Origin: Bifidobacteriaceae bacterium
GTDB taxonomy: Bacteria; Bacteroidota; Bacteroidia; Bacteroidales; Marinilabiliaceae
NCBI GenBank assembly: GCA_963607345.1
Contig: CAVDBL010000004.1
Location: 73,627 to 137,626, forward strand
Length of the DNA stretch: 64,000 nucleotides
Direction: 5' to 3'
Below the pieces are notes generated by a model. The model saw only the letters and a program-made list of their open reading frames with translations, searched no databases and was not told the DNA's origin. The position numbers and the translations under genes were made by a program. Position 1 is the stretch's first letter. Each line of letters starts with the position of its first letter. Shown here piece after piece: positions 24,211-64,000 of this stretch.

Positions 24211-24216
24211 CCACTC

Positions 24217-44025: not shown

Positions 44026-44036
44026 GATATTGCGCT

Positions 44037-45956: not shown

Positions 45957-45966
45957 GTAAGGTAAC

Positions 45967-46998: not shown

Positions 46999-47136
46999 TG
47001 TTAGCCTATATATGTAAGGTTTGTCCCTATTTAGTGACTCTTAACAAGTTGGCTTTGCTGGATATGGGGCATGAAAAAGCCGCGTCTCATAGGCCAAAGT
47101 GGCGAATGAGGCGCGGTGTCTTGTATGTTTATTGGC

Positions 47137-47847: not shown

Positions 47848-49071
47848 ATGCAGACCTTTTCTACAGAAATCAAGTTGAGTTTCCTCTTGAGGAACACCAA
47901 GTCAACAAGTCCAACAGTTATTTATGCTTATTTAAGATTCAGAGGCAAGTTTAAAAAGTTTCCGACTGGAGTTAAGGTGTTACCTAAACACTGGAACAGG
48001 GACGCTCAATTTGCGGTCACAGGGGGTAAAATAACGGCTTTAGACAAGAGCGCCAATGTAAAGTGCAATGAAGTTTTAGAGTTGATTAGAAGGCGTTTCA
48101 AGGAGGTCGTAGAGGAGGTTGAGGGTAACGATATTCTTGACAAGGTTTACGGTCTCTTGACTGGTAAAGAAGACTGTAGCCTGCTTGACGCTTTAAACGA
48201 GGTTGTCAAGGATAAAGGCGCAATGTATCGTTTAGCTGTTGAGTGGTTAAGCAGGTACTTAAAGGAGAATCCTATTAACGTAAAAGAGCTTAATAAGATT
48301 TATCTTGAAGGTTTTAAGGAGTGGTTTTTGAGGAGCGGCAAACAGGCTATTTACATGAAGACTTTATGCTCCTGTTTAAAAACCTCATTCAAGGAGGCTA
48401 ATCTAAAAGGGCTTATAGACGACGATACATACAGCAGAATAGCCTTTTATAAATTCAACATACAGGACAAGGCGAACAGGGTTAAACCGTTCCTTTACGA
48501 CAATGAAGTAATACAGCTGTACAACGTAACAACAGAAACGGAGGACGAACGTACTGTTGTAGACCTCTTTATTCTTGAATGTACATTAGGTCAACGTGTT
48601 GGCGATACAGGGCGAATAGACGAATGTGTCAAGAAGGTAGGCGACAAGTGGATTCTGGAGCTTGTTCAGCAGAAGACGAAGAAAAGGGTCGTTTGTGATG
48701 TTCTTTTCAAGCTGCCAATAGAGATACTGGAGCGCAACAGGTTTAACATTCCCGAAATAGACATAAGCCGCTACAATAGGCTTATTAAGAAATTAGCTCA
48801 ACGAGCTGGACTGAACAGGCTTTTTGAGGTTGAGAAGCACAGCGCCACGACAACGGTAGAGAAGAAACCTTTATACTCAATAATATCAAGTCATGTAGGC
48901 AGGCATACGTTTGACGCTTTATTAAGGATGCGAGGTTACACCCCAGCTCAAATAACTAAATACAGCGGTCATTCAGAAAAAGAGGTGTTAAGCTATACGG
49001 CTGCTTTTTACGAGGACCGTGATATAGCGTATTATGAGGCTTTAAAAGTCAAGCTTGAAATGATAAAATAA
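47848..49071 (+). CDS. Tyrosine-type site-specific integrase (phage integrase family)
   Basis: Catalytic-domain residues LGQRVGD (Arg), HVGRHTFDALL (H-x-x-R) and YSGHSEKEVLSYT (His/Tyr). 407 aa with no in-frame TAG. Stop is TAA. Confidence 0.9.
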   Translation: MQTFSTEIKLSFLLRNTKSTSPTVIYAYLRFRGKFKKFPTGVKVLPKHWNRDAQFAVTGGKITALDKSANVKCNEVLELIRRRFKEVVEEVEGNDILDKVYGLLTGKEDCSLLDALNEVVKDKGAMYRLAVEWLSRYLKENPINVKELNKIYLEGFKEWFLRSGKQAIYMKTLCSCLKTSFKEANLKGLIDDDTYSRIAFYKFNIQDKANRVKPFLYDNEVIQLYNVTTETEDERTVVDLFILECTLGQRVGDTGRIDECVKKVGDKWILELVQQKTKKRVVCDVLFKLPIEILERNRFNIPEIDISRYNRLIKKLAQRAGLNRLFEVEKHSATTTVEKKPLYSIISSHVGRHTFDALLRMRGYTPAQITKYSGHSEKEVLSYTAAFYEDRDIAYYEALKVKLEMIK

Positions 49072-49077
49072 GGGATT

Positions 49078-49173
49078 AAAAAATCCACTGAGGCATTACT
49101 ATTAAGTATTCAGTAAACTGAATACTATATAAAGGTTCGCCGCCTTGCAGGCTGCTTTACCAGGACGTTTAAC
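49078..49173 (+). repeat. Imperfect direct repeat, copy 1, upstream of the suppressor tRNA
   Basis: Shares AAAAAATCCACTGA, CAT(T/A)ACTA, TATATAAAGGT and GACGTT(T/C)AAC in the same order as 49339-49420. Contains the hairpin GTATTCAG taaa CTGAATAC. Confidence 0.6.
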
Positions 49174-49221
49174 ATTTATTACTTTATAAAGAATAATACA
49201 ACAGGTAGTATTACTAAAGAA

Positions 49222-49293
49222 TCTCCCATGGTGTAAAGGCAAGCACACCGCTCTCTAAAAGCGAAGGTTTCAGTTCGAATCTGAATAGGAGGA
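49222..49293 (+). tRNA. Suppressor tRNA, anticodon CUA (reads UAG); amino-acid identity probably Gln
   Basis: 72-nt cloverleaf. Acceptor TCTCCCA/TAGGAGG (U1.G72 wobble and one C6.A67 mismatch). U8. D-arm GTGT-AAAGGCAA-GCAC. Anticodon stem CCGCT/AGCGA (4 bp plus a terminal mismatch). Loop CTCTAAA with CTA at 49255-49257. 4-nt variable loop. T-arm TTCAG-TTCGAAT-CTGAA. Discriminator A. Confidence 0.8.
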
Positions 49294-49338
49294 CTATTAA
49301 TATGTAAAGTGTTGATTTATAATAGAATATAATGCAAG

Positions 49339-49420
49339 AAAAAATCCACTGATACATAACTACTAAATATAATACTACGTATTATATATATAAAGGTAGA
49401 CCGTCCTACAGACGTTCAAC
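49339..49420 (+). repeat. Imperfect direct repeat, copy 2, downstream of the suppressor tRNA
   Basis: See 49078-49173; same ordered sequence blocks. Confidence 0.6.
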
Positions 49421-49526
49421 CAAGAATCAAAAATTTTCTGTATATATAGTGAAAGGGAATTGTGAAGAGACAAATAATAAAGAACTGAATATATTAACGC
49501 AAACGTATTTTTTCATATTTAAGTGG

Positions 49527-49552
49527 GGTGTTACGAAACACCTTGCTTTTTT
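49527..49552 (+). terminator. Candidate intrinsic terminator closing the tRNA/repeat region
   Basis: GGTGTT acga AACACC followed by TTGCTTTTTT. Confidence 0.5.
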
Positions 49553-49591
49553 ATGAAAATTCTTTATTATTTTTCTGCATTTTCTTTTGGA

Positions 49592-49611
49592 ATATTCTTG
49601 AAAAAGAATAT
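49592..49611. promoter_or_regulatory. Perfect 8-bp inverted repeat (operator-like) upstream of the HTH gene
   Basis: ATATTCTT gaaa AAGAATAT, 34 nt upstream of the ATG at 49645. Confidence 0.4.
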
Positions 49612-49644
49612 ATTTATAATATAATAATTAAACAACATAACGTT

Positions 49645-50463
49645 ATGAAAAAATACGTTTGTATAAACAAGAACATATTAGGGTTAAACCTTAACCAAGT
49701 ACGAATCTACTTCACAATGAAGAAGTGGACGAATAAGCACGGTATTTGTGATTTAACCCAGCATCAAATAGCAGAAAGAAGTGGTGTGCCTTATGATACT
49801 GTAATTGACAATATGACTAAAGAGTTTTACGCAGCCGCCAATTGCAGGGTTAAGAAGGTACACGTTGATTCTTATATATTCCGTAACATTTATCATTTTA
49901 CCGAGAAGAAGTTTGTGTTAATTAAAGAGGACTTCTTAAAGGTGAACGCTGACAAAAAGCTTAAAGCACTTGTTATTCTGCTCAAGCTCCTTTGTTTTAA
50001 AAATTCCAACAAGTTGGCTTATAATAAGGCTCAACTTTGCGAATTGCTTAATATGTCAAGACCTACTCTTAACAAGTACCTTAAAGCAGCTATTGAGGCT
50101 GGACTTATTAAGTATAATAAGAACTGTATTGAAATTACTTGTGCTGGCGTAACTGTCAGTGCAGTAAATTTCAACAAGTTAAGCGACGGTGATAAGGCTT
50201 ATGCTGTTATTAGTAATTATTGTGAGGCACGTGGCGTTAAGGCTCCACGTTACAACAAAAGACTGGTCAACGAGCTTAACCTTGCTTGGAATGAAGGTAA
50301 AGACAATAATGTAAATTATGCTGTTGTCAATATTATTAAGAGGCTCAACCGCTGCAACATTAAAGTTGGCAAATCATATAGTCTTGCTTATTTTCTCAAG
50401 GTTCTGCTTAACACTAAACTTGACATTAGGCGCAACGCAACTGTTTATATGACAATGAATTAA
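49645..50463 (+). CDS. Putative DNA-binding protein with two HTH/winged-helix segments (replication initiator or regulator)
   Basis: LTQHQIAERSGVPYDTVIDNM and NKAQLCELLNMSRPTLNKYLKAAIEAGLI look like HTH units. No in-frame TAG. Stop is TAA. The ATG at 49645 is used rather than the listed 49528. Confidence 0.55.
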   Translation: MKKYVCINKNILGLNLNQVRIYFTMKKWTNKHGICDLTQHQIAERSGVPYDTVIDNMTKEFYAAANCRVKKVHVDSYIFRNIYHFTEKKFVLIKEDFLKVNADKKLKALVILLKLLCFKNSNKLAYNKAQLCELLNMSRPTLNKYLKAAIEAGLIKYNKNCIEITCAGVTVSAVNFNKLSDGDKAYAVISNYCEARGVKAPRYNKRLVNELNLAWNEGKDNNVNYAVVNIIKRLNRCNIKVGKSYSLAYFLKVLLNTKLDIRRNATVYMTMN

Positions 50464-50473
50464 TATTACAAGT

Positions 50474-50719
50474 ATGAACGAAGAGGAATTATTAAAGCAA
50501 GCAATGAGCGTCCCTGAAGAAAAAGCGAATAAATTAACGACGATACTTAATAATACACGTCGTAGCAGAAGGGATTCAGAATCTCTTATTGAGGAGTTAA
50601 TAGAGAAAAGAAAACGAGTAGCCGAAAACAGGATTAACTTCAGCAGCTTAACGGAGGAGTGCAGACGTATAAATAAAATACTTGATAAAAATAAAAAATA
50701 TGATATAGAATTTTCTTGA
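50474..50719 (+). CDS. Small charged hypothetical protein
   Basis: 81-aa ORF with no in-frame TAG. Stop is TGA. Confidence 0.45.
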   Translation: MNEEELLKQAMSVPEEKANKLTTILNNTRRSRRDSESLIEELIEKRKRVAENRINFSSLTEECRRINKILDKNKKYDIEFS

Positions 50720-50816
50720 TAAGCTTGAAAAATATTTAGAAAAAGCTTATTATTATAGAGCGGAAATAGCGACAACATTTTTAACAGCTGTAATACTGTA
50801 CATGATATTCGGATAA
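50700..50816 (+). CDS. Possible 38-aa membrane peptide (needs TAG read-through at 50706)
   Basis: MI[TAG]NFLDKLEKYLEKAYYYRAEIATTFLTAVILYMIFG, stop TAA. Short, so uncertain. Confidence 0.3.
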
Positions 50817-50833
50817 GAATAAAAAAAACAATT

Positions 50834-51079
50834 ATGACAACACAAGAACAAATTAATAAAATAACTGAAGAGCAAAATAAAATATAGAATGCTATATTAA
50901 AGCTGCAAAAAAATACTGAAAAGCTTCAGAATAATACGTAGAAATTAGAGAAGAGTATTCAAGAGACCAAACTTCAACAAGAACAGTTAATGAAAAACAC
51001 TTACAGGTTAAGTTAGCGTTTAGAGGAATTGTTTTTTGAAATAGAGAAATTTAAATAGCAGGTAGGCTACACTTCATAA
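50834..51079 (+). CDS. Gln-rich coiled-coil protein, 81 codons with 4 in-frame TAG
   Basis: MTTQEQINKITEEQNKI*NAILKLQKNTEKLQNNT*KLEKSIQETKLQQEQLMKNTYRLS*RLEELFFEIEKFK*QVGYTS. TAGs at 50885, 50939, 51014 and 51056. Stop is TAA. Confidence 0.55.
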
Positions 51080-51135
51080 TTCATGTCTATATTCAGCTTT
51101 AATTAGCTGGGTATAGACTTTATATGTTTATTTAT

Positions 51136-51324
51136 ATGCAATAGAAAACACAATTATTTTGCGCTATATTTTTAATAGTAGTTGGCGCAATATTACTTAT
51201 CAGCGGCTTTATAGTTCCACCTGTAGGCATTATAGATTCAAGCGTCCTTGTAGCATTTGGCGAGATATTGACTTTTGTAGGTTCGCTTTTTGGAATAGAT
51301 TATCATTATAGATATAAAAAATAA
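51136..51324 (+). CDS. Small two-TM membrane protein (1 in-frame TAG)
   Basis: MQ*KTQLFCAIFLIVVGAILLISGFIVPPVGIIDSSVLVAFGEILTFVGSLFGIDYHYRYKK. TAG at 51142. An alternative in-frame ATG is at 51124. Stop is TAA. Confidence 0.45.
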
Positions 51325-51401
51325 TGTTATTTATTTTGTTTTATTAATTAGAATATTTATATTTATAATGTAAGAGAACAAAAGCTCTTGTATTATTAAT
51401 T

Positions 51402-51833
51402 ATGAAGTGCAATTTAATAGCAGAAAAGGCTTCACGCAACAGACTTGATTAGATGTTGGGATATGAAGCAGGCAAAGGTCCTATAGTCTGGGACGAAATA
51501 AAAACAGAAGAAGACATATATAATCATTACGACGGAGTTTACGGCGATTACCTTGTAGAGCTTAAACAGTTGAGTTATAAAGGTAAAGGCTTAATGGTAG
51601 ACAAATAGAAGATAAATTGGTTACAGGAGGCTGTAAAAGAGTTGAAGAAAAACGATGCTTTAGTTATTTGGACTATAGAAGGGACTAAAGATATTTATGC
51701 AGTATCAGTTAAATAGCTTGATAAGTATATGAAGAACGGTACAGCTTGGATTCAATATTTGTCAACGGACAACGGTTATAAACCTGTAGTCTTTATTAAT
51801 TTTGAAAAAGCTTGTTATAGGGAGGGAATATAA
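51402..51833 (+). CDS. Putative VRR-NUC / PD-(D/E)xK-like nuclease (3 in-frame TAG)
   Basis: ...DGVYGDYLVELKQLSYKGKGLMVDK*KINWLQEAV... has the D...ExK motif and then a Q..W-type motif whose Q is the TAG at 51606. The other TAGs are at 51450 and 51714. Stop is TAA. Family is from memory. Confidence 0.5.
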
Positions 51834-51835
51834 TT

Positions 51836-52051
51836 ATGAGACTGGACGCAAGGTATTACACATATACTGAACAATAGAGGCTGGAGCTTACAGATTTTTG
51901 TAAAGCCCACGGAATTAAGACGATTAACCACCTAACAGAATACCTGTTAGATTCAATATTAAACGGACATTATGTTATTAAACATGGAAAAGAGCTGTTA
52001 CGACCAGATAAAAAGAGAATAGGGAATAGTGGAGAAGGCTGTAAGGAATGA
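51836..52051 (+). CDS. Hypothetical protein (1 in-frame TAG)
   Basis: MRLDARYYTYTEQ*RLELTDFCKAHGIKTINHLTEYLLDSILNGHYVIKHGKELL... TAG at 51875. Stop is TGA. Confidence 0.4.
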
Positions 52052-52391
52052 CGCTGTATTTACGCTGTATGAGCGTTTTAAAAGACTTCTTCCAAACTCA
52101 AATCATGAACTATTGAGCGATACGTTATTGAAGTTGACTGTTACTTATGATCCCAACAGGGATTTTATAGAGCAGTTCAAGGAGACTTGGGATTAGTTGG
52201 CTCAATGTTTTTAGAGGTCTAATTATTACTCGAAAGGTTATCACGTCTCATTGGAGGATATACCGAATCCTGAAGAGGAGGAGCGGAACGCGTATGATAT
52301 TATTAATGATAAGGAGTTAATAAAAGATGCCGTGGTTGAAACAGCTGCAAAGGCGACCAAAAGCCGAAAGCGAAGAGAGAAAAAAGCGTAA
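51972..52391 (+). CDS. Hypothetical protein with basic C-terminus (3 in-frame TAG)
   Basis: Open only if the TAGs at 52020, 52194 and 52212 are decoded: ...FTLYERFKRLLPNSNHELLSDTLLKLTVTYDPNRDFIEQFKETWD*LAQCF*RSNYY...KSRKRREKKA. Stop is TAA. The start is uncertain (ATG 51972/51984 or GTG 52029). Confidence 0.42.
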
Positions 52392-52719
52392 AGAGATTTA
52401 TAATACAGAACGTTGGCGCAAATTGAGGGGCGGCTATTTCATGTAGCACCCTTTATGCGAACTCTGTTATTAGAAGGGTATTATTAGAGAAGCGACGGAC
52501 GTGCATCATGTCATTTCACCGTTCAGCAGTGAACAAGGGAAACAAAACCCTTTACTTTATGCTTATGACGCTGACAACTTGATAAGCTTATGTAAAGAAT
52601 GTCATTCAGAATTGCACGGAAACAAACAAGAAGAATCATTATACGATATTTATTATGAACGAAAAATTAAGCAAACAACAATTACTGAAGAAGATACAGG
52701 ACGTGACGAAATGCAGTGA
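52327..52719 (+). CDS. HNH endonuclease (terminase-associated type), 2 in-frame TAG
   Basis: ...YNTERWRKLRGGYFM*HPLCELCY*KGIIREATDVHHVISP...NLISLCKECHSELHG has the classic phage HNH layout. TAGs at 52444 and 52471. Stop is TGA. Confidence 0.85.
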
Positions 52720-53053
52720 TACGACAACAGAATATGTATCACTTGTTATAGACGGTTTGGAGCAGCAGGGAAAACTTGACGCTGTAGATTAGGGGGCTTT
52801 AATACTATTGGCTAATTCTTATAATTTACAGCTTAAAGCAGTAGAGGAGCTTAACAAGTCAACCTTGCTGGTAATGAACGGAAACACGCCAATGAAGAAT
52901 CCGCTTGTGCAGATAATAGTATCTTGTCAAGGTTTATGCGTAAGAATAATGCAGGATTTTGGTTTAACTGCACGTAGTCGAAAATACCTTAACAAGGGAG
53001 AAGAGAAAAAGGAAGTTGAAGAGAGCGCACTTGATTCATTTTTAAAGAGTTAA
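52655..53053 (+). CDS. terS: Terminase small subunit (P27-family-like), 1 in-frame TAG
   Basis: MNEKLSKQQLLKKIQ...LDAVD*GALILLANSYNLQLKAVEELNK...NPLVQIIVSCQGLCVRIMQDFGLTARSRKYL. TAG at 52790. Stop is TAA. Confidence 0.78.
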
Positions 53054-53057
53054 CATT

Positions 53058-53642
53058 ATGAAAGAGTATCTTAAATACGCTTAGGATACTGTTAGTAGTG
53101 AAAAAGCAGGCAACCTTATAAAGTTATCATGCAGCAGGTTTCTTAATGATTTAAGAAGAGAGGATTTAGAGTTTAGGGAAAATGAAGTAGACCGCTGCAT
53201 AAACTTTATAGGGTTGTTCAAGCATTATACTGGTTCACATTCTGGAAAACAGTTCAAGCTTGAACCTTGGCAATAGTTTATAGCAGCCAACATTGTAGGG
53301 TTCTATTGGAAAGGGACAAACAGGAGGAGGTTTACTAATAGCTATATAGAGGTTGCTAGAAAAGCTGGCAAGAGCTAGCTGGCAGCAGCCTTATGCTTAT
53401 ACTTCTTAATTGCGGACAAGGAGGACGGTGCTGAAGTCCTTTTGGCGGCAAACAGTAAAGATTAGGCTAAAATAGCTTTTGAGATGTGCAGCGTTTTCGC
53501 CAAACAGCTTGACAAGACAGGTAAAAAGCTGATTTGTTACAGGGCTGATATACTTTTCAACACTACTAACAGCAAGCTTAAATGTTTAGCTGCTGACGAT
53601 TCTAAACTTGACGGCTTTAACGCTTCATTTGGTCTTATTGAT
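53058..53642 (+). CDS. terL: Terminase large subunit, exon 1 (195 codons, 4 in-frame TAG)
   Basis: MKEYLKYA*DTV...FKLEPWQ*FIAANIVGFYW...VARKAGKS*LAAALCLYFLIADKEDGAEVLLAANSKD*AKIAFEMC...FNASFGLID carries the Walker A motif and the start of Walker B. TAGs at 53082, 53274, 53376 and 53463. Confidence 0.88.
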
Positions 53643-54591
53643 AAATATTTGTCAATGTAAAAGTACTTTAATTACGGGAAACTCCTAAAGTTCGCAATAC
53701 CAACTTAATAAAGTGATTTATTAAGGGCTAAACTAATCATTTAGAGAAGGTAACAAGTTGCGAAATTGGAAAATCCGTAACCAAGCAACTTTTTTAAAAG
53801 TTGAAGGTTCAACGACTACCGAAAGCACATCTTTTAGGTGGAAGCAAGTAGGGTACAATGTAAGCTAATGACATTGGAAATGGGTGCAGTCTACATACGT
53901 GTATTTCATAATACTTTAATAATAAGCGAGATGAAAATATATGTATTAAAAGATCCTCGGAATGATTAGATTAGGTATGTAGGGGTGACAACGCAAGCTT
54001 TAAATCAAAGATTATCACAACATATAAACGCCGCTAAAAAGAACGAAATGAGACACGTTTGTAAGTGGATAAAAGTTTTGTTAAAGCTTGAATTACGACC
54101 TATTATTGAGCAAATAGATGAAGTTGATAATGAGCAGTGGTAGGAATGGGAGGTTTATTATATCTCATATTATCGGAAAATTGGGTGTGAACTTACAAAC
54201 ATTGATAAAGGAGGAAACGGTGTAGTTTCTGCTGAAAAGAGGTCAAAGGATTCAATGTTAAGAAGCTCCGAAAAACACAAGAAACCTGTTTATCAACTTA
54301 ATAGGAACCTTGAAATAATAAAAGAGTGGAAATCTGTAACAGATGCCTGTAATGAGTTGGGGTATAAGCAAGCCAATATCGCCAACGCCTTACATAAAAA
54401 AATAGGAGCTTATGGGTATTTATGGTGCAGGGTTTCTGAATTTGCGAACTATAAACCTAAAAGTAATTATCTAAATCCAAGAGGATGTAAGTAGATTAAG
54501 ATATAGTCTTAACTCTTGAGAAATCAAGAGCAGTTTGTGGGAAAATACCCACCGCTGTACTATATTTTGCGAATATAGTAAAAAATAATTG
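53643..54591 (+). mobile_element. Group I self-splicing intron (phage IA-like core) interrupting terL and carrying a homing endonuclease gene
   Basis: P1: exon end ATTGAT (53637-53642) pairs with the intron sequence GTCAAT (53651-53656), with a U.G pair at the splice site. The last intron nucleotide is G (54591). Joining the exons restores GAT|GAA TTT CAC = LIDEFH. Core-like elements are AACGACTA (53811), AAGTAGGGT (53846) and the hairpin CAATGT...ACATTG (53856/53871). Confidence 0.82.
53931..54512 (+). CDS. Intron-encoded GIY-YIG homing endonuclease with C-terminal HTH-like DNA-binding module (4 TAG read as sense)
   Basis: MKIYVLKDPRND*IRYVGVTTQALNQRLSQHI...EQW*EWEVYYISYYRKIGCELTNIDKGGNG, then ...VYQLNRNLEIIKEWKSVTDACNELGYKQANIANALHKKIGAYGYLW. 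TAGs at 53967, 54141, 54492 and 54504. Stop is TAA at 54510. Confidence 0.82.
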
Positions 54592-55626
54592 GAATTTCAC
54601 TCGGCTAAAAACAGTAAAGTACGTGATGTTATCAAGAGTTCAATGGGTATGAGGTCAAGACCACATTTATGTACGATAACTACAGCAGGATTTAATAAGA
54701 ACAGTCCTTGTTACGAGTTAAGGACAACTTGTTGTGAAGTGCTTAAAGGTATAAAGCAGGACGATTCTACTTTTGCCGCTATATATTCACTTGACGAGGG
54801 TGACGACTGGAAGAATCCTGAAGTTTGGGCAAAATCGAACCCTAATTTAGGTGTTACAGTATTTCCAGAATACTTAAAAGAGCAGGTTAATTTAGCTATT
54901 AATAATCCAAGCGAGGAGGTTGGGGTAAAGACTAAAAACCTTAATATGTGGTGTGATGTTTCCGACGTTTGGATTAATGATATATCACTGGTTCAAAACT
55001 CAAAACAACTTGATTTAAGCGTATTTAAAAACCGACAAGTTTATGTGGGCGTGGATTTAGCCGCAACAGGAGATTTGACCGCCGTATCATATATGACTGA
55101 AATTGACAATGTAAAATACTTTTATGTAAAGTACTATTTGCCAAGCTCTTGTCTGGACGGTAAAAAGAACTCTTATAATTACAGAAATTGGAAGAATAGC
55201 GGCTACTTGACAGTTACGGAGGGTAATGTTACAGACTACGACTACATTACTAAAGATATGCTGGAGGTTGCCCAAAATGCTCAAATATGCAATGTTGCTT
55301 ATGACAATTGGAACAGTACGCAATGGGCTATAGACGCTGTTTCAAAAGGTCTGCCGCTAAATCCTTATAGTCAGTCTATTGGCAATTTTAACAGACCTAC
55401 AAAAGAATTTGAGCGGCTTCTATACGGTGGAGGAATAGTAATAGATTCAAATCCGATTAACAGGTTCTGCTTTAAAAACGTCGTGTTAAAAACAGACCAT
55501 AACGGAAACAGCAAACCGAGTAAAGAGAGTTATAATAATAAAATAGACGGTGTTATAGCGATGCTTATGAGTTTAGGAGGTTATCTGCAAACACCAAAAT
55601 ATAATAATCAAATTTTTTCTGTATAA
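54592..55626 (+). CDS. terL: Terminase large subunit, exon 2 (nuclease half)
   Basis: EFHSAKNSKVRDVIKSSMGMRSRPHLCTITTAGFNKNSPCYE...VGVDLAATGDLTAV...IDGVIAML, Terminase_1-like. No TAG. Stop is TAA. Confidence 0.88.
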   Translation, partial: EFHSAKNSKVRDVIKSSMGMRSRPHLCTITTAGFNKNSPCYELRTTCCEVLKGIKQDDSTFAAIYSLDEGDDWKNPEVWAKSNPNLGVTVFPEYLKEQVNLAINNPSEEVGVKTKNLNMWCDVSDVWINDISLVQNSKQLDLSVFKNRQVYVGVDLAATGDLTAVSYMTEIDNVKYFYVKYYLPSSCLDGKKNSYNYRNWKNSGYLTVTEGNVTDYDYITKDMLEVAQNAQICNVAYDNWNSTQWAIDAVSKGLPLNPYSQSIGNFNRPTKEFERLLYGGGIVIDSNPINRFCFKNVVLKTDHNGNSKPSKESYNNKIDGVIAMLMSLGGYLQTPKYNNQIFSV

Positions 55627-55639
55627 TAGAAAAGAAGAT

Positions 55640-56866
55640 ATGAAATTTATCGATTTTTTTAAACGAAATAGAAGTCCTTAGGAAACTGAAAAACGTTCAT
55701 TGTTTGGTGACGCATTGACTTATGCGGGTTCACCAAACACTATTAGTGAGTATAAGTCGATGCTGTTGAGTACAGTTTACCGTTGTGTAGACTTGATAAG
55801 CAACAGTGTTGCCTCGCTGCCTTTTGAGCCTTATGAGGTTTCTTGTGACGGCTATAGAAAGAAGCTGCACGACCACCCTATATATCATGTACTTAATTAT
55901 GAGCCAAATGAGCGAATGACAAGGTTTATATTCATGAAAGCACTTGTTACGAGCATGATATTGAGGGGTAACGGTTATGCTTATATAGAGCGTGATAAAC
56001 TTGGTAATGTCATAAAGCTTGATTACCTTGATTCTGACAGGGTTAGCCCTATTATAGACTACACGAGCAACACTATTAAGTATTATGTAGTATCTGGTTA
56101 CAAGGTACCACGAGTGGAGCCTATAAACATGATACACTTGATAAACTTTACTTATGACGGCATAACTGGAGTATCAACATTAAAGAGCGCAAGAGGTTGT
56201 CTTTCAGCTGCTTATAATGCAGAACAGACTGCTGCTGGATTCTTTACAGGAGGTTGTAATGTTGGCGGCATACTTAAAGTTCAAGGAATGCTTAATGAAG
56301 TGCAGAAACAACAGCTAAAGTCAAGTTGGCAACAGGCGTTCAGTCCTGCTACAGGTCAACCAAATGGTGTAGCTGTTTTGGAGGGAAATATGGACTTCAG
56401 TCCTATAACGGTGAATCCTGCTGACGCTCAACTGCTTGAGAGCAGGCAATATAACGTTATAGATATTTGCCGTTTTTTTGGAGTTAACCCTACAAAAGTA
56501 TTTGACTTGACAAAAGCCTCTTATTCAACGGTGGAGGCTGAAAACCTGCAATTCTTGAACGATACGCTTCAACCGATAATAGAGAAAATAGAGCAGGAGT
56601 TTCAACGGAAACTATTTAAACCAAGTGAAAAAGCGCATACAATAGTACGATTCGATACCAGCTCAATGTTGAGGACTGATAAGAACAGTCAAGCTTCATA
56701 TTACTCAACTTTATTCAATATGGGTGCAATGAGCATCAACGAAATACGAAAAGCACTTGATTTAGAGCCTATTGAAGGTGGTGATACTCATTATGTGCAG
56801 GTTAACATGGGTGCTACAAACAATAACGAAATAAATGAAGAAGGAAATAAGGAATTACAGGAGTGA
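55640..56866 (+). CDS. Portal protein, HK97 family (1 in-frame TAG)
   Basis: MKFIDFFKRNRSP*ETEKRSLFGDALTY...STVYRCVDLISNSVASLPFEPY...NGYAYIERD... TAG at 55679. Stop is TGA. Confidence 0.9.
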
Positions 56867-57374
56867 AACCACCTTTAACGAAAGGCGTGTAACTGGTTAC
56901 GCTGTTGTGTTTAATAGTTACTCGCATGATTTAGGCGGTTTTAAGGAGATAATAGAGCCTACTGCCTTGGACGGGATAATAGAGATTTCAGACGTGCTAT
57001 GCTTAATGAACCACGACGAGGACAGGGGTGTTTTAGCACGCTCAAAATACGGAAAAGGGACGTTGGAGTTGACAATAGACGAACACGGCTTAAAATACAG
57101 TTTTGAGGCTCCACATACAGCTTTAGGAGACGAGCTTTTAGAGGGGCTTAACAGGGGCGATATTACGACCAGCTCTTTTGCCTTTACCGTCGCTGAAGAG
57201 CAGTGGGATAAAGACGAGACTGGAGTTGATATTAGAATCATAAAGAAAATAGACAGACTTTACGACGTTTCGCCAGTATATCAGGAGGCTTATCCTGATA
57301 CGGACGTTGCGCAACGGAATCACAAGCAACATTTGGACAATTACTTTTTAAAACTCAGAAAATCAATAATTTAA
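56835..57374 (+). CDS. Prohead maturation protease, HK97 family
   Basis: ...RVTGYAVVFNSYSHDLGGFKEIIEPTALDG...CLMNHDEDRGVLARS...TSSFAF... No TAG. Stop is TAA. Confidence 0.87.
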   Translation: MKKEIRNYRSETTFNERRVTGYAVVFNSYSHDLGGFKEIIEPTALDGIIEISDVLCLMNHDEDRGVLARSKYGKGTLELTIDEHGLKYSFEAPHTALGDELLEGLNRGDITTSSFAFTVAEEQWDKDETGVDIRIIKKIDRLYDVSPVYQEAYPDTDVAQRNHKQHLDNYFLKLRKSII

Positions 57375-57378
57375 CATT

Positions 57379-58656
57379 ATGAAGAACATAAATTCACTTC
57401 AAATTTTGGACAAGAAATTAAATTTACAGAAGAGGGCTACGGCTCTTTTCGATAAGGCTGAAGAGGAAGGACGTATGCTTACTGAAGACGAGCAAAAGCT
57501 TTACGAGGAAATTAAGGCTCAAATCGCTGAACTTGAAAAGCAGAAGAGTGAACTTGAGGCAAAACTGAACGAAGAAGCTTCCGACGAGGAAGAAGATAAA
57601 GAAGAGGCTTCCGACGACGAGGAAGACGACGAGGATAAAATTGAACAAAACAAACGAAACAAAAGGAATATGAAATTTAGTCTTTTAAAAGCTATTAATA
57701 GCGTAGTAAACAACCGTTCTCTTGATGAGGACGCTCAAAAAGTCATTACCCGTGGCGTAAACCAGATGCGTAATTCTGGACTTTCTTATGGTGGTCAAAT
57801 ATAGATCCCTATTGAGAACCGCGCGACGGACGGCACCTTGACTGGAGGCAATTTAAAGTCCACGACAACAAACGGAGGCAAGGAAGCTGTACCTACTGAT
57901 ACTCTTGATATTTTGACCGCCCTTCGCAACAAGCTTGTTTTAGTTCAAGCTGGTGCTACTTGCATGAACGGACTTGTAGGCAATGTTGAGATACCTGTTT
58001 ATTCTGGTTCCACTGTAGGTTGGGAAGGTGAAGTAGACGCTGCTACAAACGGCACTGGTACAATGAGTTCTGTAGAGCTTTCTCCAAAACGCATCACCGC
58101 TTATGTTGACGTTTCCAAGCAGTTCCTTATCCAGACTTCCGACGCTGCTGAAGCAATGTTGAAGAATGATATTGTTGAGGCTATATCCAATAAGCTTGAG
58201 GAAACTATTTTAGGTACTGAAGCTGGTTCTAACAAGAAACCTGCTGGTATACTCAACGGTGTAACTGCTGATACTACTGCTGTTAAATATGCTGATATTG
58301 TCTCTATGGAGGCAAGTCTTGAGGCTGCAAACATTGACGGTGATTACAAGGTAATCGTCTCCCCTACAGCAAAGGCTAAACTCAAGACCACTTCTGTTGA
58401 CGCTGGCTCTGGACGTTTCATTATGGAATCCAACGAGGTTGACGGCTATGAGGCTTTAACCACTAATGCAGTTCCTGCAAACGGTGTTATTTTCGGCAAT
58501 TTCAACGAGCTTGTCATTGGTCAGTGGGGTGCTTTTGACGTAACTGTTGACCCTTATACTCAAGCTGCGAACGGAAAGGTTAGACTTGTCGTAAATGCTT
58601 ATTTTGACGCTAAGCTTCGTCGTTCTGGAGCAGTTGTCGGTAAAATACTTGCTTAA
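57379..58656 (+). CDS. Major capsid protein, HK97 family, with N-terminal coiled-coil/acidic delta domain (1 in-frame TAG)
   Basis: Two listed ORFs (57379-57804 and 57838-58656) share a frame and are joined by the TAG at 57802 (GGQI*IPIENRA). The C-terminal part (...LRNKLVLVQAGATCMNGLVGNVEIPVYS...YFDAKLRR) is typical of HK97 MCPs. Stop is TAA. Confidence 0.9.
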
Positions 58657-58709
58657 TTAATCTGGAGGGGCTGGAGTAGGCTTCAGCCCTTCTTTTTATA
58701 CTTAATATC

Positions 58710-59006
58710 ATGGTGACTTTAGAAGAGGTAAAAACACATTTAAATATTGATTCCGACTATACAGCGGACGATACTTATTTAAATTGGCTTATAGAAGTTG
58801 CCAGCGAATCTATACTAAATCAGCTTGACTGGAGTGAAACTGAAGACGCTGAAGTAGAATACCCTAAAGCGGTGAATCACGCAATATTGATGCGAATAGC
58901 AGAACTTTATAACAACAGGGAGGAGACTACTTCAAACAGTGTCAATTAGAGGACTAAAGCGGCTGATTTCCTTGTGAGCCAGCATAGACGTTATACAATA
59001 GCATAA
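58710..59006 (+). CDS. Head-tail connector (gp6-like) protein (1 in-frame TAG)
   Basis: MVTLEEVKTHLNIDSDYTADDTYLNWLIEVASESI...AILMRIAELYNNRE...VN*RTKAADFLVSQHRRYTIA. TAG at 58947. Stop is TAA. Confidence 0.68.
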
Positions 59007-59008
59007 TT

Positions 59009-59392
59009 ATGGAAGCAGGGCGTTTAGACAGTCTTATAAAGCTTTACAGGCTTGATAAGGACACGGTTGACAAATACGGGCGTAAAGACAGGGTGTATAG
59101 GCTTGTTGGAGAAAAAAGATGCAACATGAGAATTGAGAGCGGCAACCCTGTTGTCATACAGGACGCTTTAACATATTCATATACGGCTTCATTCTGGTTT
59201 AGGCGTTTTGTTGAAATTGGGGTTTATGATTTAATAGTTTACAGCCCTAATAAAGAGAATGACACCAAAAGCCTTTAGGAGGTTTTTCTGGTTGATACTG
59301 TTATCTACAACAGACAGGAGGACCGAAAAGAGGTGAAGGCGCACAGAATAGACTGGGAGGCTGTTAAATTCAAAATAGACAATGGGCAATAA
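59009..59392 (+). CDS. Head closure / head-tail adaptor protein (1 in-frame TAG)
   Basis: MEAGRLDSLIKLYRL...KRCNMRIESGNP...TKSL*EVFLVDTVIYNRQEDRKEVKAHRI... TAG at 59276. Assigned from position and size. Stop is TAA. Confidence 0.6.
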
Positions 59393-59789
59393 ATTTGAGT
59401 ATAAAAAGCTCAAGCGTAAACTCCAAAAACTCTCAAGGGACTACTTTAAACCTGTTAGAAAATACCTTAATCAAGCAGGAAAGACAATATCAAGCGCAGC
59501 AAAAGCGAACTTTAAAGGAACAGGAATAAGCAAAGAACTTGCAAAAGGGATTTCGCACAAGGTTTGGAAAACAGGTACTGGTGTTTATATAGGCTTAAAA
59601 AAAGACTTTAGGTTGACATTTTTTGAAAAAGGAACCAAGGAGCGTTATCATAAGGATAAGCACTATACAGGTCAAATCCAGCCTTATTTCTTCTTTAAGA
59701 GTGCAGTGGACAATAACCTTGAGGCTGCTCAAAAAATCATACAGGACGGAGTAAACGAACAAATCAATGAGCTTAATAAAGACAATTAA
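59382..59789 (+). CDS. HK97 gp10-like tail-attachment/neck protein
   Basis: 135 aa; ...AAKANFKGTGISKELAKGISHKVWKTG...YFFFKSAVDNN... Assigned from position in the module. No TAG. Confidence 0.55.
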   Translation: MGNKFEYKKLKRKLQKLSRDYFKPVRKYLNQAGKTISSAAKANFKGTGISKELAKGISHKVWKTGTGVYIGLKKDFRLTFFEKGTKERYHKDKHYTGQIQPYFFFKSAVDNNLEAAQKIIQDGVNEQINELNKDN

Positions 59790-60198
59790 ACTGACACCAG
59801 AAATCTCTATATACTTGAAGAAGGTATGTGAAAATGCAAATTTAACATATTACCCTTTAATAGGCGATGCTGACGCTGAAGCCCCTTATGTTGTATATTA
59901 GAGACTTTCACAAGAATTAGATAACTCCAAGGACGGAGAATTTGGCATGAACGCTTCATTTATAGTGAAGTTTGTCGCTGCCACTTATTCGGAATCCCTT
60001 GAAATGTTGAAGAAGTTCGCTGAAAACCTTTTCATTGAGGACGGAATAGAGACGACAGAAGAGGACGGCACGACCACTGAAGCTCCTTTTGAGGAGTTCA
60101 CTGTTGTTGACGTATCTATTACGGATAACGGTGAAGAGTGGTCCGAGAACTACTTTATCAATACAATAACAGTAAACATAACTTATAATTTAAAATAA
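59767..60198 (+). CDS. Tail completion / neck protein candidate (1 in-frame TAG)
   Basis: MSLIKTIKLTPEISIYLK...YYPLIGDADAEAPYVVY*RLSQELD...; the PYVVY motif recalls DUF3168-type proteins. TAG at 59899. Stop is TAA. Confidence 0.5.
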
Positions 60199-60199
60199 A

Positions 60200-60661
60200 A
60201 TGAACAGCACTTATAAAGGCAAAAACCTTCAAGTCCTTTTAAATAATAAATCTATTGCATTGGCAACCAGTCACAGTCTTGATATCAGCATATCTACTGT
60301 TGATATTACAACTAAAGACGATAACGGAATGTTCACCAATAGCGCAGCGTAGAGCGTTTCGTGGACAATGAGTTCTGATAACCTTGTCAGCTACGGAACC
60401 GACGGCGCAAGCACTGTAGACGTTATTGACATGGCACTTGTAGGAACCAAGGTTACACTTATTTTTGGACTGGTAACACCACTTGACGCTTCAGTACCAA
60501 CTGGAGGGTTCACGAAGAACAGCACTGCTGAAGATGCTTTTGCTTATACTGGCGATGCTATTATCACAAGTGTTTCTGTTTCAGCTGCTAACGGTGAACG
60601 TGCTACCTACAGCATATCGTTCCAAGGTTGCGGAGAACTCAAAAAGGTTTCAAATAGCTGA
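60200..60661 (+). CDS. Major tail protein (TP901-1 / Phage_tail_2-like), 1 in-frame TAG
   Basis: MNSTYKGKNLQVLLNNKSIALATSHSLDISISTVDITTKDDNGMFTNSAA*SVSWTMSSDNLV...ANGERATYSISFQGCGEL. TAG at 60350. Stop is TGA. Confidence 0.75.
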
Positions 60662-60683
60662 TAATTAATTATTTAGACATGAA

Positions 60684-60719
60684 GAGTGGTTGGTGGTCTT
60701 CACCACCACTCTATTTTTA
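60684..60719 (+). terminator. Intrinsic terminator after the major tail gene
   Basis: GAGTGGT(T)GG ... CCACCACTC hairpin followed by TATTTTTAT. Confidence 0.55.
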
Positions 60720-60768
60720 TTTGTATTTGTCAAGTCTTATCGTTATATTAGAAGAAAACAATAAGACT

Positions 60769-61026
60769 ATGAATATCATATCAAAACTCATAAAGTATAT
60801 AAAGGACAGAAAAGCAGCCAAGAAAGAGGCTGAATTTCAAAGAATGTTTAAAGCGGAACTTGAACGCCAAAAAGAAACAGAAGAGATTAGGAAGTACCTA
60901 AAAGACAATAACATAGATATAACTATAAATTATGTTAGTGAGAAACCTGTTAAAGAAGAGAAATCTATTTATGAGGAGTGCTGGGAATATCTTGGCATAT
61001 ATGGAATGAAAAACCCATTTGATTAA
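60769..61026 (+). CDS. Small charged hypothetical protein
   Basis: MNIISKLIKYIKDRKAAKKEAEF... The ATG at 60769 is used because the listed start (60679) lies inside the terminator hairpin. Confidence 0.4.
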   Translation: MNIISKLIKYIKDRKAAKKEAEFQRMFKAELERQKETEEIRKYLKDNNIDITINYVSEKPVKEEKSIYEECWEYLGIYGMKNPFD

Positions 61027-61032
61027 GCAATT

Positions 61033-61338
61033 ATGAAAATATCGATTAAAAATTAGGAATTAGCTGTAAAGCATACTATTAGAACGACAATGACTTGGGA
61101 GGAGCTTAAAGGAGGAACTTTTAAGCTTGAGAATACTTCTGATGCTATTAAGTATATGTGGATATGTACAAAGTCTTATAATGATACAGATATTACGTTT
61201 GAGGATTTTTTGGACGGAATAACAAAACGAAATTTGGAGGACTTTTTGGAAGAGATAACGAATAAGGAGCAGCCAAAAAAAAAGAGCTTTCTGAGTAGAC
61301 TGTTTCAACGGCTGAAGTGTTTGCTTGGTTCACGTTGA
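61033..61338 (+). CDS. Tail assembly chaperone (gpG-like), 1 in-frame TAG
   Basis: MKISIKN*ELAVKHTIRTTMTWEELKGGTFKLENTSDAIKYMW... It lies immediately upstream of the tape measure gene. TAG at 61054. An A9 run lies near the 3' end. Stop is TGA. Confidence 0.65.
61275..61283 (+). promoter_or_regulatory. Slippery A9 run: candidate programmed -1 ribosomal frameshift site (G to G-T)
   Basis: CC AAA AAA AAG in the zero frame contains the A_AAA_AAA heptamer. The -1 frame is open from 61266 to 61619 if TAG is decoded. Confidence 0.6.
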
Positions 61339-61619
61339 GTTTAGGGCTTGAACCAGAATATGTGTTAGACCGAATGACAAGACAAGAGGCGGCTGCTTTA
61401 ATGAAGTATTCTTATTATAAGAATAAAGTAGACTGGGAGCGTACACGGTTTAACGCTTATTGTACAGTTCAGATTCAAAGTAAAAAGAGAATAAAACCTG
61501 AAGACTTAATAAAGTTCAACTGGGAAAAAGAATCAGAAGTGCATATACCAACAGACGAGGAAATTAAGCAAGTAGCAGAATGGGCTAAACAAATTCGTAA
61601 AAAATAGGAAAATGAGTGA
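61281..61619 (+). CDS. gpT-like extension of the tail assembly chaperone, reached by -1 frameshift (2 TAG in this frame)
   Basis: The -1 frame reads KKKELSE*TVSTAEVFAWFTLSLGLEPEYVLDRMTRQEAAALMKY...AKQIRKK*ENE. TAGs at 61296 and 61605. Stop is TGA at 61617. Confidence 0.55.
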
Positions 61620-63768
61620 TATAAAAATAAATCTTGAACTTGATTCAAGTAAGTTCTCTAAATAGTTTGAATCTTTTGGAAAAACGTTTGAAAATGAGTT
61701 TTCCGCTTGTCAAAAGTCTATTACGGCTACAGAGGACGAGATTAAACAGTTGACAGAAGAATTAAGCAACTATACAAAAGAGAGCGAGAATTATAAGGAA
61801 ATAGCCAAGTGGATTCAAGACGATAACAAGAAGCTTGAGGAGTAGAAAAAGTAGTTCACATCACTACAAAATTCAATAGGTGCTTACGCTCAAAAAATTG
61901 AGGAGGCATCAAAAAAACAGACAGCTTTAACTAACAAGCTTAGCAAGCTTGACGTAAATTCTGACGAGTACAAAAAAGTTGTCAAGGAAATAAAGAATTG
62001 TCAGGAGGAGCAGGAAAAGTTTAGGGGTAAAATAACAAAAGCTACAAAATCTTTAGGTGAACAAGTACCAGTCGTAAAGAGGGTTGGAAAGGCTATTACC
62101 AGTGCAGCTGGAATATTCAACCAAATATCGTGGGCTATACAGCAATTACAAGATTTATTTGAGGAGCTGTATGAGAGTTGTGAGCCTTTTGCTGAAATTG
62201 TAGACTATATTTCTGGAGCTGTTGCTGCTTGGTTTGCAATGGTAAAGAAATATATTGGAGCGTTAGTTAAGCTGTTTACAGGGGATTTTTCTGGGGCTAT
62301 TAACGACTTCAAGGAAATTGTTACAGGCGTAGTTGATACTGTAGTGCGAGTAGCAAAAGCTACAGCATTATTAAAGAAACAAATACGTGAATTGGATAAG
62401 GCTTTACTTGACTTTTCAAATCAAACTTCCGTCTTGACCACTAATATTGAGGCTTATAAGAAAATCATAGAAGACAGCACGACGAGTGTTCAACAGAAAA
62501 AAGACGCTTTAACGGCTTTAAAGAACACATATGAGTAGCTTAATTCAGTTTTAAAGGATCAGAGAAAACAACAACAGGATATAATAAAGTCCACTATTAA
62601 TGCGAAGTTAGCGACGACGAAATTAAACGACGTTACTGCTGAGCAAACACAGTCGTTTGTTGACCTCATGAGGACAGGGCAAACCTTATCCGAATCAATG
62701 AAGGAGGCTTTTGGTGAAGATGTGTACAAACAGCTCAGTCAGTCTGAACTAAAGGATATTAATGAACAATTCAATAAAATAAAAGAAACCGATAAACAAA
62801 TCATTGATTCCAACAAGCAGATAAGAGAAAGTGAAAAATCAGTACAAAAAGCTATTAAAGAGGCTGCTGATAACAGTTACAAGCTTAAAGACAGTTATAA
62901 AGAATCCAGTGAATACCTTGAGGCTCAAAAGACTAAACTTGAAGAAGCGAAGAAGCGAGTTGAACTTTATTCTGAAGAGTGGAAACAAATTGACAAACAG
63001 ATAAAAGACATAGACAACATTCTTAAATACGGCAAAAACACAATAGAGTTTAAAGTCAAGTTGAATATGTCTGATTAGGAGTTTACTGATTTTGAGAAGT
63101 ATGTAAAAGACAACCTAAACAACACTCTTGAGGGGCTTAATACGGAGCAGATACAGGAGTTTTATGCTTAGTGGCTTGAAAGTCTTAGAATTGTCAATGA
63201 TACAAATAACGACTTGAACGAATCTTTAATAACAGGAACTTCTTTAATTTAGAGAGAATCTAAAGGAACTGAAGATATAGCTCAAAACAAACAACAGGAG
63301 CAGGAGGCGCAACAGAATTTAGTATCAGCTTATAATGATACCGCTTCAGCTATTGGTGATGTTACAGGCGAAACGGAATTAGCGGCTCAAGCGCAACAGG
63401 CAATGAACCTTGCTTTACAGATCCAGGCAATGGCGCAAGCTATTTCAACAGCCGCTGAAGGAGATCCTTATACAGTGGCTTTACGTATAGCCGCCGCTTC
63501 CGCTGCTGTTGTTGCTGGCATGGCAAAATTCACCAAATTCGCTACAGGTGGTATTGTTGAGGGTCAATATCAGACTGGTGATATGAACCTTGTCGCAGTC
63601 AACGGAGGTGAAATGATACTTAACAAGAATCAGCAGGGCAATTTGTTCAGACTTATCCAAAACGGTACAATAGGCGGTCAAGGTGGAGATGTTCAGTTTA
63701 GAATTTCTGGTAAAGACCTTGTCGGTACACTTAACAACTACAATAAATACAACTCATTAACAAAATGA
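61612..63768 (+). CDS. Tail tape measure protein (718 aa, 7 in-frame TAG)
   Basis: Four listed ORF fragments (62239-, 62668-, 63403- and the unlisted N-terminus) share one frame and are separated only by TAG (61663, 61843, 61852, 62536, 63076, 63169, 63250). Long coiled-coil sequence, a hydrophobic AAASAAVVAGMAKF segment and a C-terminal GGEMILNKNQ motif. Stop is TGA. Confidence 0.85.
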
Positions 63769-64000
63769 CAACATACACAGGTTCATTCACGAACAGGAGC
63801 AATGATAAGTTTAGGCTGCAAATAAATTCCAGTTCTGGTAACGGTTCTAAAGAAATAACTATTACAGGGGTGACGATAAACAGCAACAGTGAAGCTACGA
63901 ACATTTACGCTCCTATTAGATATACCTCATTGGATTTCAGTATATTAACCGACGATATAGATATTTATAAAGGAGCTTTTCTTAACGCTACTGTAATACT
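63765..64000 (+). CDS. Next tail gene (distal tail protein position), 3' end outside the window
   Basis: The ATG overlaps the tape-measure stop (ATGA). MTTYTGSFTNRSNDKFRLQINSSSGNGSKEITITGV... stays open to the window edge. Confidence 0.45.
   Translation, partial: MTTYTGSFTNRSNDKFRLQINSSSGNGSKEITITGVTINSNSEATNIYAPIRYTSLDFSILTDDIDIYKGAFLNATVI

Follow-up and report, generated by a model that had tools for sequence, protein, structure and literature searches.

The window analysed here, a 64,000-nucleotide (nt) stretch of contig CAVDBL010000004.1, carries in its right part a prophage whose genes are repeatedly interrupted by TAG. We consider it highly probable that this is a temperate HK97-like prophage which uses TAG as a glutamine (Gln) codon in nearly all of its later genes, encodes its own tRNA with the anticodon CUA (tRNA(CUA)), and resides in a Bacteroidales host that keeps the standard genetic code. 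An initial annotation of the same DNA had proposed that the prophage reads TAG as a sense codon, probably Gln, inside a standard-code host. This proposal was borne out by alignment columns conserved as Gln, by exchanges between TAG and Gln codons among relatives, by the ratio of nonsynonymous to synonymous substitution rates (dN/dS), and by intact host open reading frames (ORFs).

TAG is translated as a sense codon in the prophage

With TAA and TGA as the sole stops, ORFs on the + strand tiled the region from 50.7 to 64 kb, which was left fragmented by translation table 11. After correction of start codons, 37 in-frame TAG codons were counted in 17 of 24 + strand gene models, the two exons of the large terminase subunit (TerL) being counted apart, and no in-frame TAA or TGA. 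The TAG-containing genes span 50.8-63.8 kb. The TAG pattern described initially (about 40 TAG codons in about 19 genes) stood, with its count lowered. Among the 23 complete phage genes, with TerL counted once, 15 ended in TAA and 8 in TGA; none ended in TAG, as had been claimed, compared with 6 of 25 host genes (Fisher p = 0.02). The zero count for TAA and TGA is partly circular, since the ORFs were defined by these two codons, and it was therefore complemented by independent checks, namely homolog alignments, dN/dS, and conservation of TAG positions. The proposed comparison of table 11 with recoded ORFs was informative in that the recoded ORFs tile the region, but the total ORF lengths under alternative stop sets did not separate the codes, since in AT-rich DNA it is the removal of TAA that opens the largest number of ORFs. 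For this reason, counts made frame by frame, alignments of homologs, and dN/dS took the place of the totals.

Look-ups of exact proteins yielded contigs from metagenomes that are 95-100% identical to the prophage (L001-L004, L010-L012, and L141), as well as more distant cousins of the same TerL family (L005-L007, L013, L015, L017, and L019). A contig in SRR13434677 is 100% identical. When the window proteins were compared with 13 loci by tblastn, the in-frame stops in eight TAG-recoded related loci were TAG only (10-58 per locus), with no TAA or TGA in the alignments. Four cousins, L005, L007, L013, and L015, had no in-frame stops and aligned through the TAG columns of the window; L007 is a prophage in Phocaeicola paurosaccharolyticus (P0009/L007). 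L019 (a logan:SRR9017931 contig, TerL 62% identical) has the same structural module with 10 in-frame TGA and no in-frame TAG, which suggests TGA recoding within the same TerL family. Most TAG positions of the window were kept in relatives 95-99% identical, and those of the four small genes at 50834-52391 were kept in L001, L002, and L010-L012. In three pairwise comparisons, dN/dS was 0.09-0.11 after the first TAG versus 0.07-0.14 before it. Other collections added little: IMG/VR gave a single relative with a portal protein 50% identical, a scan of genome contigs with the helix-turn-helix (HTH) protein of the prophage gave no match, and the GenBank phages in INPHARED included no annotated close relative and only two unannotated human-gut contigs with TerL identity of 62-71%. 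Taken together, these comparisons show that TAG is translated as a sense codon in the prophage, because purifying selection persists downstream of TAG and the standard-code cousins align through the TAG columns.

The same data bear on the view that the prophage is decaying and non-functional, its TAG codons being ordinary truncating nonsense mutations. Fragmentation under table 11 and the additional interruption of TerL would agree with decay, but all 37 in-frame interruptions are TAG, whereas TAA would be expected to be the commonest at 36% GC; with p = 1/3 per stop type, the probability of this outcome is below about 2e-18. Furthermore, dN/dS stays at about 0.1 downstream of the TAG codons, the TAG positions are common to independent contigs, the phage has a conserved tRNA(CUA) of its own, it is found at a second integration site, and the interruption of TerL corresponds to a predicted group I intron with clean splice boundaries. 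Real stops would leave neither purifying selection downstream nor interruptions by TAG only, so that decay can be regarded as effectively refuted.

Glutamine is the most likely residue at TAG

Residues at the TAG columns were first sought in TerL, whose spliced sequence, with X at each TAG position, returned 120 full-length homologs. The column SKD-X-AKI was Q in 119 of 119 homologs and the column EPWQ-X-FI in 90 of 119, while the third and fourth TAG columns were Ala and variable, respectively. The statement that TAG sits at conserved Gln positions was thus correct for SKD-X-AKI and did not extend to some other columns, which are Ala or variable. Among close relatives, TAG in the window was exchanged with a Gln codon at 7 columns (CAG in 5, CAA in 2, the CAA cases requiring two nucleotide changes), and TAG was also seen in relatives at CAG positions of the window. 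At the two TAG columns of the HNH gene, L006 has CAA or CAG at both, L005 has CAG at column 49, and L015 has CAA at column 40. The TAG column of the small terminase subunit (TerS) is CAG in L010-L012, and that of the capsid gene is CAA in L006 and CAG in L017.

Seen from the opposite side, TAG codons of distant recoded cousins were aligned with Q of the window in 23 of 70 cases, 33% against a background of 3.7%, or a 9-fold enrichment. Other residues were enriched no more than 1.6-fold (Lys 1.1-fold, Glu 1.2-fold). Tabulating homolog residues at TAG columns, a check that the initial annotation had suggested, hence gave Gln enrichment and alignments that continue past the TAG codons. On the basis of the TerL columns, the exchanges among TAG, CAG, and CAA, the 9-fold enrichment of Q, and the tRNA-Gln-like features of tRNA(CUA) described below, TAG most likely encodes Gln (genetic code 15), with TAA and TGA remaining as stops.

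A tRNA with anticodon CUA lies beside the integrase gene

The tRNA(CUA) gene, overlooked in the initial annotation, was detected by ARAGORN and by the Rfam tRNA model (49.4 bits) between the integrase and HTH genes, in the block that lacks TAG. L141 and L142 have a copy that is 100% identical, although the DNA around it is 95% identical. In L006, a separate tRNA(CUA) immediately follows a serine recombinase gene, and its anticodon and T stems show compensatory changes. The suppressor family of the window tRNA (UCUCCUA-UGGUGUAAUGGUUAGCAC...CUCUAAA) was found on 26 further gut viral or metagenome contigs, some of them 113-181 kb long; in an alignment with Bacteroidales tRNA-Gln, it folds into a cloverleaf in which 14 of 21 pairs show compensatory changes. 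In each of the 13 Bacteroidales genomes sampled, the D-arm motif ATGGTGTAANGG..AGCAC was that of tRNA-Gln. U1, A73, and a short variable loop are likewise shared with Bacteroidales tRNA-Gln, and the best-scoring tRNAs in a comparison restricted to Bacteroidales were Gln. A Gln identity of tRNA(CUA) is probable, not proven, because of a C6-A67 mismatch and a U1-G72 pair in the window copy. In L021 and L109, two Prevotella genomes, a tRNA-Gln-like body with the anticodon CCG, assigned to Arg by ARAGORN, is located near genuine tRNA-Gln genes.

The tRNA gene is bracketed by two copies of a direct repeat of about 105 nt, spaced by 261 nt, each of which contains AAAAAATCCACTGA, a short hairpin, and TATATAAAGGT. 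The repeat pair may be regulatory. Further downstream, a perfect 18-nt inverted repeat (49500-49517 and 49644-49661) was observed, whose right arm spans the start codon of the HTH/DnaD-like gene. A short divergent ORF, sharing its N-terminal residues (MKKYV) with that gene, would begin in the left arm, and the two arms enclose a terminator-like hairpin (49521-49548).

Several observations weigh against the assignment of TAG to Gln by a phage-encoded, regulated tRNA. Besides the mismatch and the U1-G72 pair, the acceptor stem of tRNA(CUA) differs from host-order tRNA-Gln at pairs 2:71 and 4:69. In other phyla, tRNAs for His, Arg, Gly, and Glu carry the D-arm motif, and scoring of overall similarity against motif-selected tRNAs from all phyla singled out no isotype, Gln included, so that the comparison restricted to Bacteroidales was the only informative one. 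In distant homologs, the residue at some TAG columns is Lys, Ala, or Glu, and the assignment to Gln in this phage rests on comparative evidence rather than on the protein level. Avoidance of TAG in the early block is not significant by itself (0 of 15 Gln-type codons versus 37 of 204, p = 0.08). Scans for sigma-70 promoters and terminators and a search for the Bacteroides-type -33/-7 pattern yielded nothing usable on regulation of the tRNA, such scans being uninformative for a Bacteroidota host. Lastly, the right part of the prophage, outside the window, may carry lysis genes or other factors of the code change.

The differences in the acceptor stem are among the points that would favor a residue other than Gln, such as Lys, Glu, Trp, or pyrrolysine. 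So are the label 'Pyl' given by ARAGORN, Lys in distant cousins at connector column 80, tube column 51, and column 45 of the gene at 59767 (g59767), and some exchanges between TAG and AAG among close relatives. On the other hand, Q alone is enriched opposite TAG, one TerL column is invariantly Q, and the two-step exchanges between TAG and CAA are best read as synonymous. A variable loop this short is incompatible with bacterial Leu, Ser, and Tyr tRNA bodies. In its D-arm, U1, and A73, the tRNA agrees with Bacteroidales tRNA-Gln. The window showed no pyl genes, and pyrrolysine was rejected as a candidate, the label having been assigned from the anticodon only. A non-Gln residue is therefore improbable in our judgement, and Gln remains the preferred assignment.

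A proposed two-block organization of decoding

No TAG occurs in the integrase gene, the HTH gene, or g50474, the 81-codon ORF at 50474. We propose that these belong to a first coding block (47.8-50.7 kb), holding the integrase, the tRNA, and the replication-initiator-like HTH protein, which would be translatable by the unmodified host because it contains no TAG. Nearly all of the later genes, among which are small early and middle genes and those for HNH, terminase, portal, capsid, neck, tail, and tape measure proteins, would be decoded with TAG as Gln. In this proposal, tRNA(CUA) would read TAG, would derive from a tRNA-Gln-type body, and would presumably be charged by the host glutaminyl-tRNA synthetase, in competition with release factor 1 (RF1). 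Following Borges et al. (bioRxiv 10.1101/2021.08.26.457843), we infer that the tRNA would be silent or insufficient in the lysogen, where TAG would block leaky synthesis of lytic and structural proteins. Expression of the tRNA at induction or infection would then bring about the switch to 'code 15' and license translation of the late genes.

A different explanation would be leaky, partial suppression, with TAG acting mainly as a stop and setting a low, tunable yield of full-length late proteins. Host RF1 is presumably still present, and neither release-factor nor synthetase genes were seen in the available 16 kb. TAG density is also uneven, being highest in the small early and middle genes and in TerL exon 1 and only 0-1 per gene in portal, protease, and capsid, which are abundant structural proteins. 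However, the tape measure gene contains 7 TAG codons and TerL contains 4, so many that inefficient read-through at each would leave hardly any full-length protein, and purifying selection is equally strong after multiple TAG codons. We judge leaky suppression to be quite unlikely, and retain efficient decoding of TAG as Gln as the favored explanation.

TerL is interrupted by a predicted group I intron

The initial annotation had stated that the prophage genes contain no frame breaks. This did not hold for TerL, in which exon 1 (ending ..GLID at 53642) and exon 2 (starting EFH.. at 54592) lie in different frames, separated by 949 nt. Excision of 53643-54591 gives ..FGLID/EFHSAK.. (slashes mark junctions), the same as in the uninterrupted allele of L002. 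The insert is absent from L002, L004, L010, and L141, and its junction is precise; the last base of exon 1 is U, and that of the intron is G. Partial matches to the Rfam model RF00028 (Intron_gpI) flank the endonuclease ORF at 53667-53826 (37.1 bits, E = 1.4e-7) and 54496-54528 (22.7 bits, E = 0.003), both below the gathering score of 50. The GIY-YIG ORF has two TAG codons in its domain and two near its end, within the intron core. Judging by these features, the insert in TerL is probably a group I intron encoding a GIY-YIG endonuclease, and its splicing is predicted.

The TerL gene of the sister contig L001 (about 97% identical in nucleotides; 2261-4906) has no intron, and instead carries a LAGLIDADG intein of about 342 amino acids (aa) in the P-loop. 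The junctions of the intein are ..RKQGK/ALSL...VTHN/TALAG.., and it contains three in-frame TAG codons.

A wider reading of these observations is that this family of Bacteroidales temperate phages flips its code repeatedly and recently, that selfish elements in TerL have adopted the TAG code, and that the tRNA and the recombinase form a portable 'code-switch plus integration' cassette serving as a lysogeny lock. Cousins at 62-69% TerL identity use TAG (the window phage, L006, and L017), TGA (L019), or the standard code (L005, L007, L013, and L015). Both elements resident in TerL, the intron endonuclease of the window and the intein of L001, contain in-frame TAG, and the suppressor tRNA adjoins a recombinase gene in phages with unrelated recombinases (tyrosine-type in the window, serine-type in L006). 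We offer this reading tentatively and think it may well be wrong; if true, maturation of TerL would need both the code switch and splicing.

The prophage boundary and the host

The left boundary of the prophage was marked by a step in GC content at about 47.7 kb, from about 52% to about 36%. From position 47747 onward, L141 and L142 are 95% identical to the window, while the upstream host genes differ. The element thus begins at about 47747 rather than at 50700, the first position of the region described initially; its right end lies beyond the window. In L141, positions 1-3108 compared with 44000-47747 of the window show different host genes (LGT, ion channel) flanking the 95%-identical phage in another metagenome. 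Because a 95%-identical copy occupies a different host locus, the integrase appears to use more than one chromosomal site and the phage to have been mobile recently. No tRNA gene was found at the left junction of the window by ARAGORN or by comparison of junctions, and exact-protein look-ups with the integrase and with the host gene adjoining the junction did not recover an empty bacterial attachment site (attB). The copy 95% identical to the prophage is on a 27.8-kb contig, which includes 3.1 kb of host DNA.

The host region encodes RNase P RNA (10397-10773), topoisomerase III, RecQ, and a protein resembling PorE of the type IX secretion system (T9SS). The closest named homolog of topoisomerase III is in a metagenome-assembled genome labelled 'Bacteroidales bacterium' (63% identity). 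Based on the PorE/T9SS-like protein and the topoisomerase III matches, we assign the host to an uncultured member of the Bacteroidales. Use of the standard genetic code by the host is supported by 25 long ORFs that are intact with table 11, 6 of which are terminated by TAG. Two identical host tRNA-Glu(CUC) genes, at 18887-18959 and 24139-24213 and 5.25 kb apart, suggest a local duplication in the host region.

Gene content of the prophage

The features of the prophage are collected in Table 1. An ordered HK97-like head-tail module is present, and matches to Terminase_4, TerL_ATPase, TerL_nuclease, Phage_portal, Peptidase_S78, Phage_capsid, Phage_connect_1, and Phage_tail_2 exceeded the Pfam curated cut-offs. 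The HK97-type gene order, the 425-aa capsid protein, and the 718-aa tape measure protein described initially were confirmed in this way, the tape measure protein by its position and length; relatives have a tape measure protein of 750-753 aa at the same place. Judged by this gene content, the prophage is a temperate HK97-like siphovirus (Caudoviricetes). The four small genes at 50834-52391 matched no Pfam or PHROGs family except for a weak coiled-coil match, and the label 'VRR-NUC-like' attached earlier to the gene at 51402-51833 found no support in either database. A match to PHROG 5 lies within the head-tail joining genes (58710-60198). The two overlapping tail-chaperone ORFs, also delimited as 61033-61338 and 61266-61619, have the layout of the usual programmed frameshift upstream of a tape measure gene.

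Table 1. Features of the prophage in the window, with the number of in-frame TAG codons and the basis of each assignment
Feature	Position	Strand	In-frame TAG	Basis
Left part of integrated temperate siphovirus-like prophage, 16.25 kb	47747-64000	+		GC drop; homology to L141 and L142 starts exactly at 47747
Tyrosine-type integrase, 407 aa, TAA terminator	47848-49071	+	0	Pfam Phage_int_SAM_5; weak Arm-DNA-bind_5 match
Direct repeat of about 105 nt, two copies	49045-49150 and 49306-49411	+		Repeat search, families D1 and D4
Amber suppressor tRNA, anticodon CUA, tRNA-Gln-like body	49222-49294	+		ARAGORN; Rfam tRNA model
HTH/DnaD-like, replication-initiator-like protein, 272 aa	49645-50463	+	0	Pfam HTH families; PHROG 186 DnaD-like helicase loader, E = 1.6e-7
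Small ORF, 81 aa; last gene in TAG-free block	50474-50719	+	0	Start-corrected ORF
Small gene, Q-rich coiled coil	50834-51079	+	4	
Small gene	51402-51833	+	3	
Small gene	51836-52051	+	1	
Small gene	51984-52391	+	3	
HNH endonuclease	52327-52719	+	2	Pfam HNH
TerS	52655-53053	+	1	Pfam Terminase_4
TerL exon 1 (ATPase domain to Walker B '..GLID')	53058-53642	+	4	Pfam TerL_ATPase
Predicted group I intron, 949 nt, within TerL Walker B motif	53643-54591	+		Partial Rfam Intron_gpI matches; absent from sister phages
GIY-YIG homing endonuclease ORF within intron	53931-54512	+		Pfam GIY-YIG; weak I-HmuI NUMOD-like match
TerL exon 2 (end of ATPase domain and nuclease domain)	54592-55626	+	0	Pfam TerL_nuclease, E = 2.5e-39
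Portal protein, 408 aa	55640-56866	+	1	Pfam Phage_portal, E = 3.9e-97
Prohead serine protease	56835-57374	+	0	Pfam Peptidase_S78
HK97-type major capsid protein, 425 aa	57379-58656	+	1	Pfam Phage_capsid
Connector (gp6-like)	58710-59006	+	1	Pfam Phage_connect_1
Head completion protein	59009-59392	+	1	Pfam Phage_HCP
gp10-like/neck protein	59382-59789	+	0	Pfam HK97-gp10_like
Head-tail region gene without named function	59767-60198	+	1	
Tail tube protein	60200-60661	+	1	Pfam Phage_tail_2
Tail assembly chaperone pair, overlapping frames	61033-61338 and 61335-61619	+	1 each	Weak Pfam Phage_TAC_19 match; ORF layout
Tape measure protein, 718 aa	61612-63768	+	7	Position and length; no Pfam match

Relation to known recoded phages and significance

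The initial annotation implied that a compact, TAG-recoded temperate prophage was new. Such elements had already been described by Borges et al. (bioRxiv 10.1101/2021.08.26.457843; later Nat Microbiol 2022) as 'Garnet' phages, TAG-recoded and 34 +/- 5 kb in size, including a curated 24.4-kb prophage in a Prevotella contig. In that study, Garnet prophages have TAG-free integrases, suppressor tRNAs, in-frame stops in 71% of genes, and fragmentation under the standard code; it also reports clades mixing codes 11, 15, and 4 and puts forward the lysogeny-switch hypothesis.

The prophage described here resembles the Garnet phages in being a compact, integrated temperate phage with TAG as a sense codon in a standard-code host of Bacteroidales type, in keeping structural and late genes in one recoded block, in its TAG-free integrase and suppressor tRNA(CUA), in the share of genes with in-frame stops (17 of 24, against about 71%), and in the GC step at its boundary. 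A size in the Garnet range would be compatible with the 27.8-kb contig of the 95%-identical copy, the window itself showing 16.25 kb. It differs in that the published prophage contig is SRR1747048_scaffold_47 (94 kb), the window being part of a 225-kb NCBI contig, in that its host is related to 'Bacteroidales bacterium' by topoisomerase III and is not an identified Prevotella, and in that the published prophage is bounded by a host tRNA-Met. The prophage thus appears to fit every Garnet feature compared, a likeness of described features rather than of TerL phylogeny.

A study of crAss-like phages describes metaproteomic evidence for TAG as Gln (PMC9523058). With the crAss-like (Crassvirales) and Lak phages, the window prophage would share code 15 with TAG as Gln in late genes, phage suppressor tRNAs, and Bacteroidota hosts, and its suppressor-tRNA sequence family occurs also on the gut-phage contigs of 113-181 kb. 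Those phages, however, are virulent or non-integrating, of podovirus-like or mega-phage type, and about 100-540 kb in size, and their structural modules are unrelated, in contrast to a small HK97-type temperate siphovirus, and the window proteins gave no match on the gut-phage contigs that carry the suppressor family. Standard-code Bacteroidales prophages such as P0009/L007 have the same order of HNH, TerS, TerL, portal, S78 protease, capsid, connector, tube, and tape measure genes, with TerL about 62% identical, but the region seen in them lacks both in-frame stops and a suppressor tRNA. The TerL intron resembles introns of the T4 td/I-TevI type in that it is of the self-splicing type, interrupts an essential gene at a highly conserved catalytic motif, carries a free-standing GIY-YIG ORF in one of its loops, and has intron-less sister alleles. 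It differs in its host gene, TerL (at Walker B), in the in-frame TAG codons of the endonuclease ORF, and in its Rfam matches, which are partial and below the gathering score.

The prophage is accordingly a further instance of a published kind, to which the tRNA, the exact boundary, the TerL intron and intein, and the mixed-code cousins are added. The conceptual gain is small, since publications of 2021-22 had already reported this type of element, its occurrence in Bacteroidales, and the hypothesis of a lysogeny lock. Prophages of this type are mis-annotated as pseudogene debris under table 11, and flagging this one in an NCBI genome contig improves both annotation and the linkage of host and phage. 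The recoded intron endonuclease, the intein, the cousins with TGA recoding or the standard code, and the second integration site could help in choosing a tractable system in which to test code switching. The window provides a clean example of two genetic codes in one chromosome, with the component of the code switch, tRNA(CUA), visible in the standard-code block.

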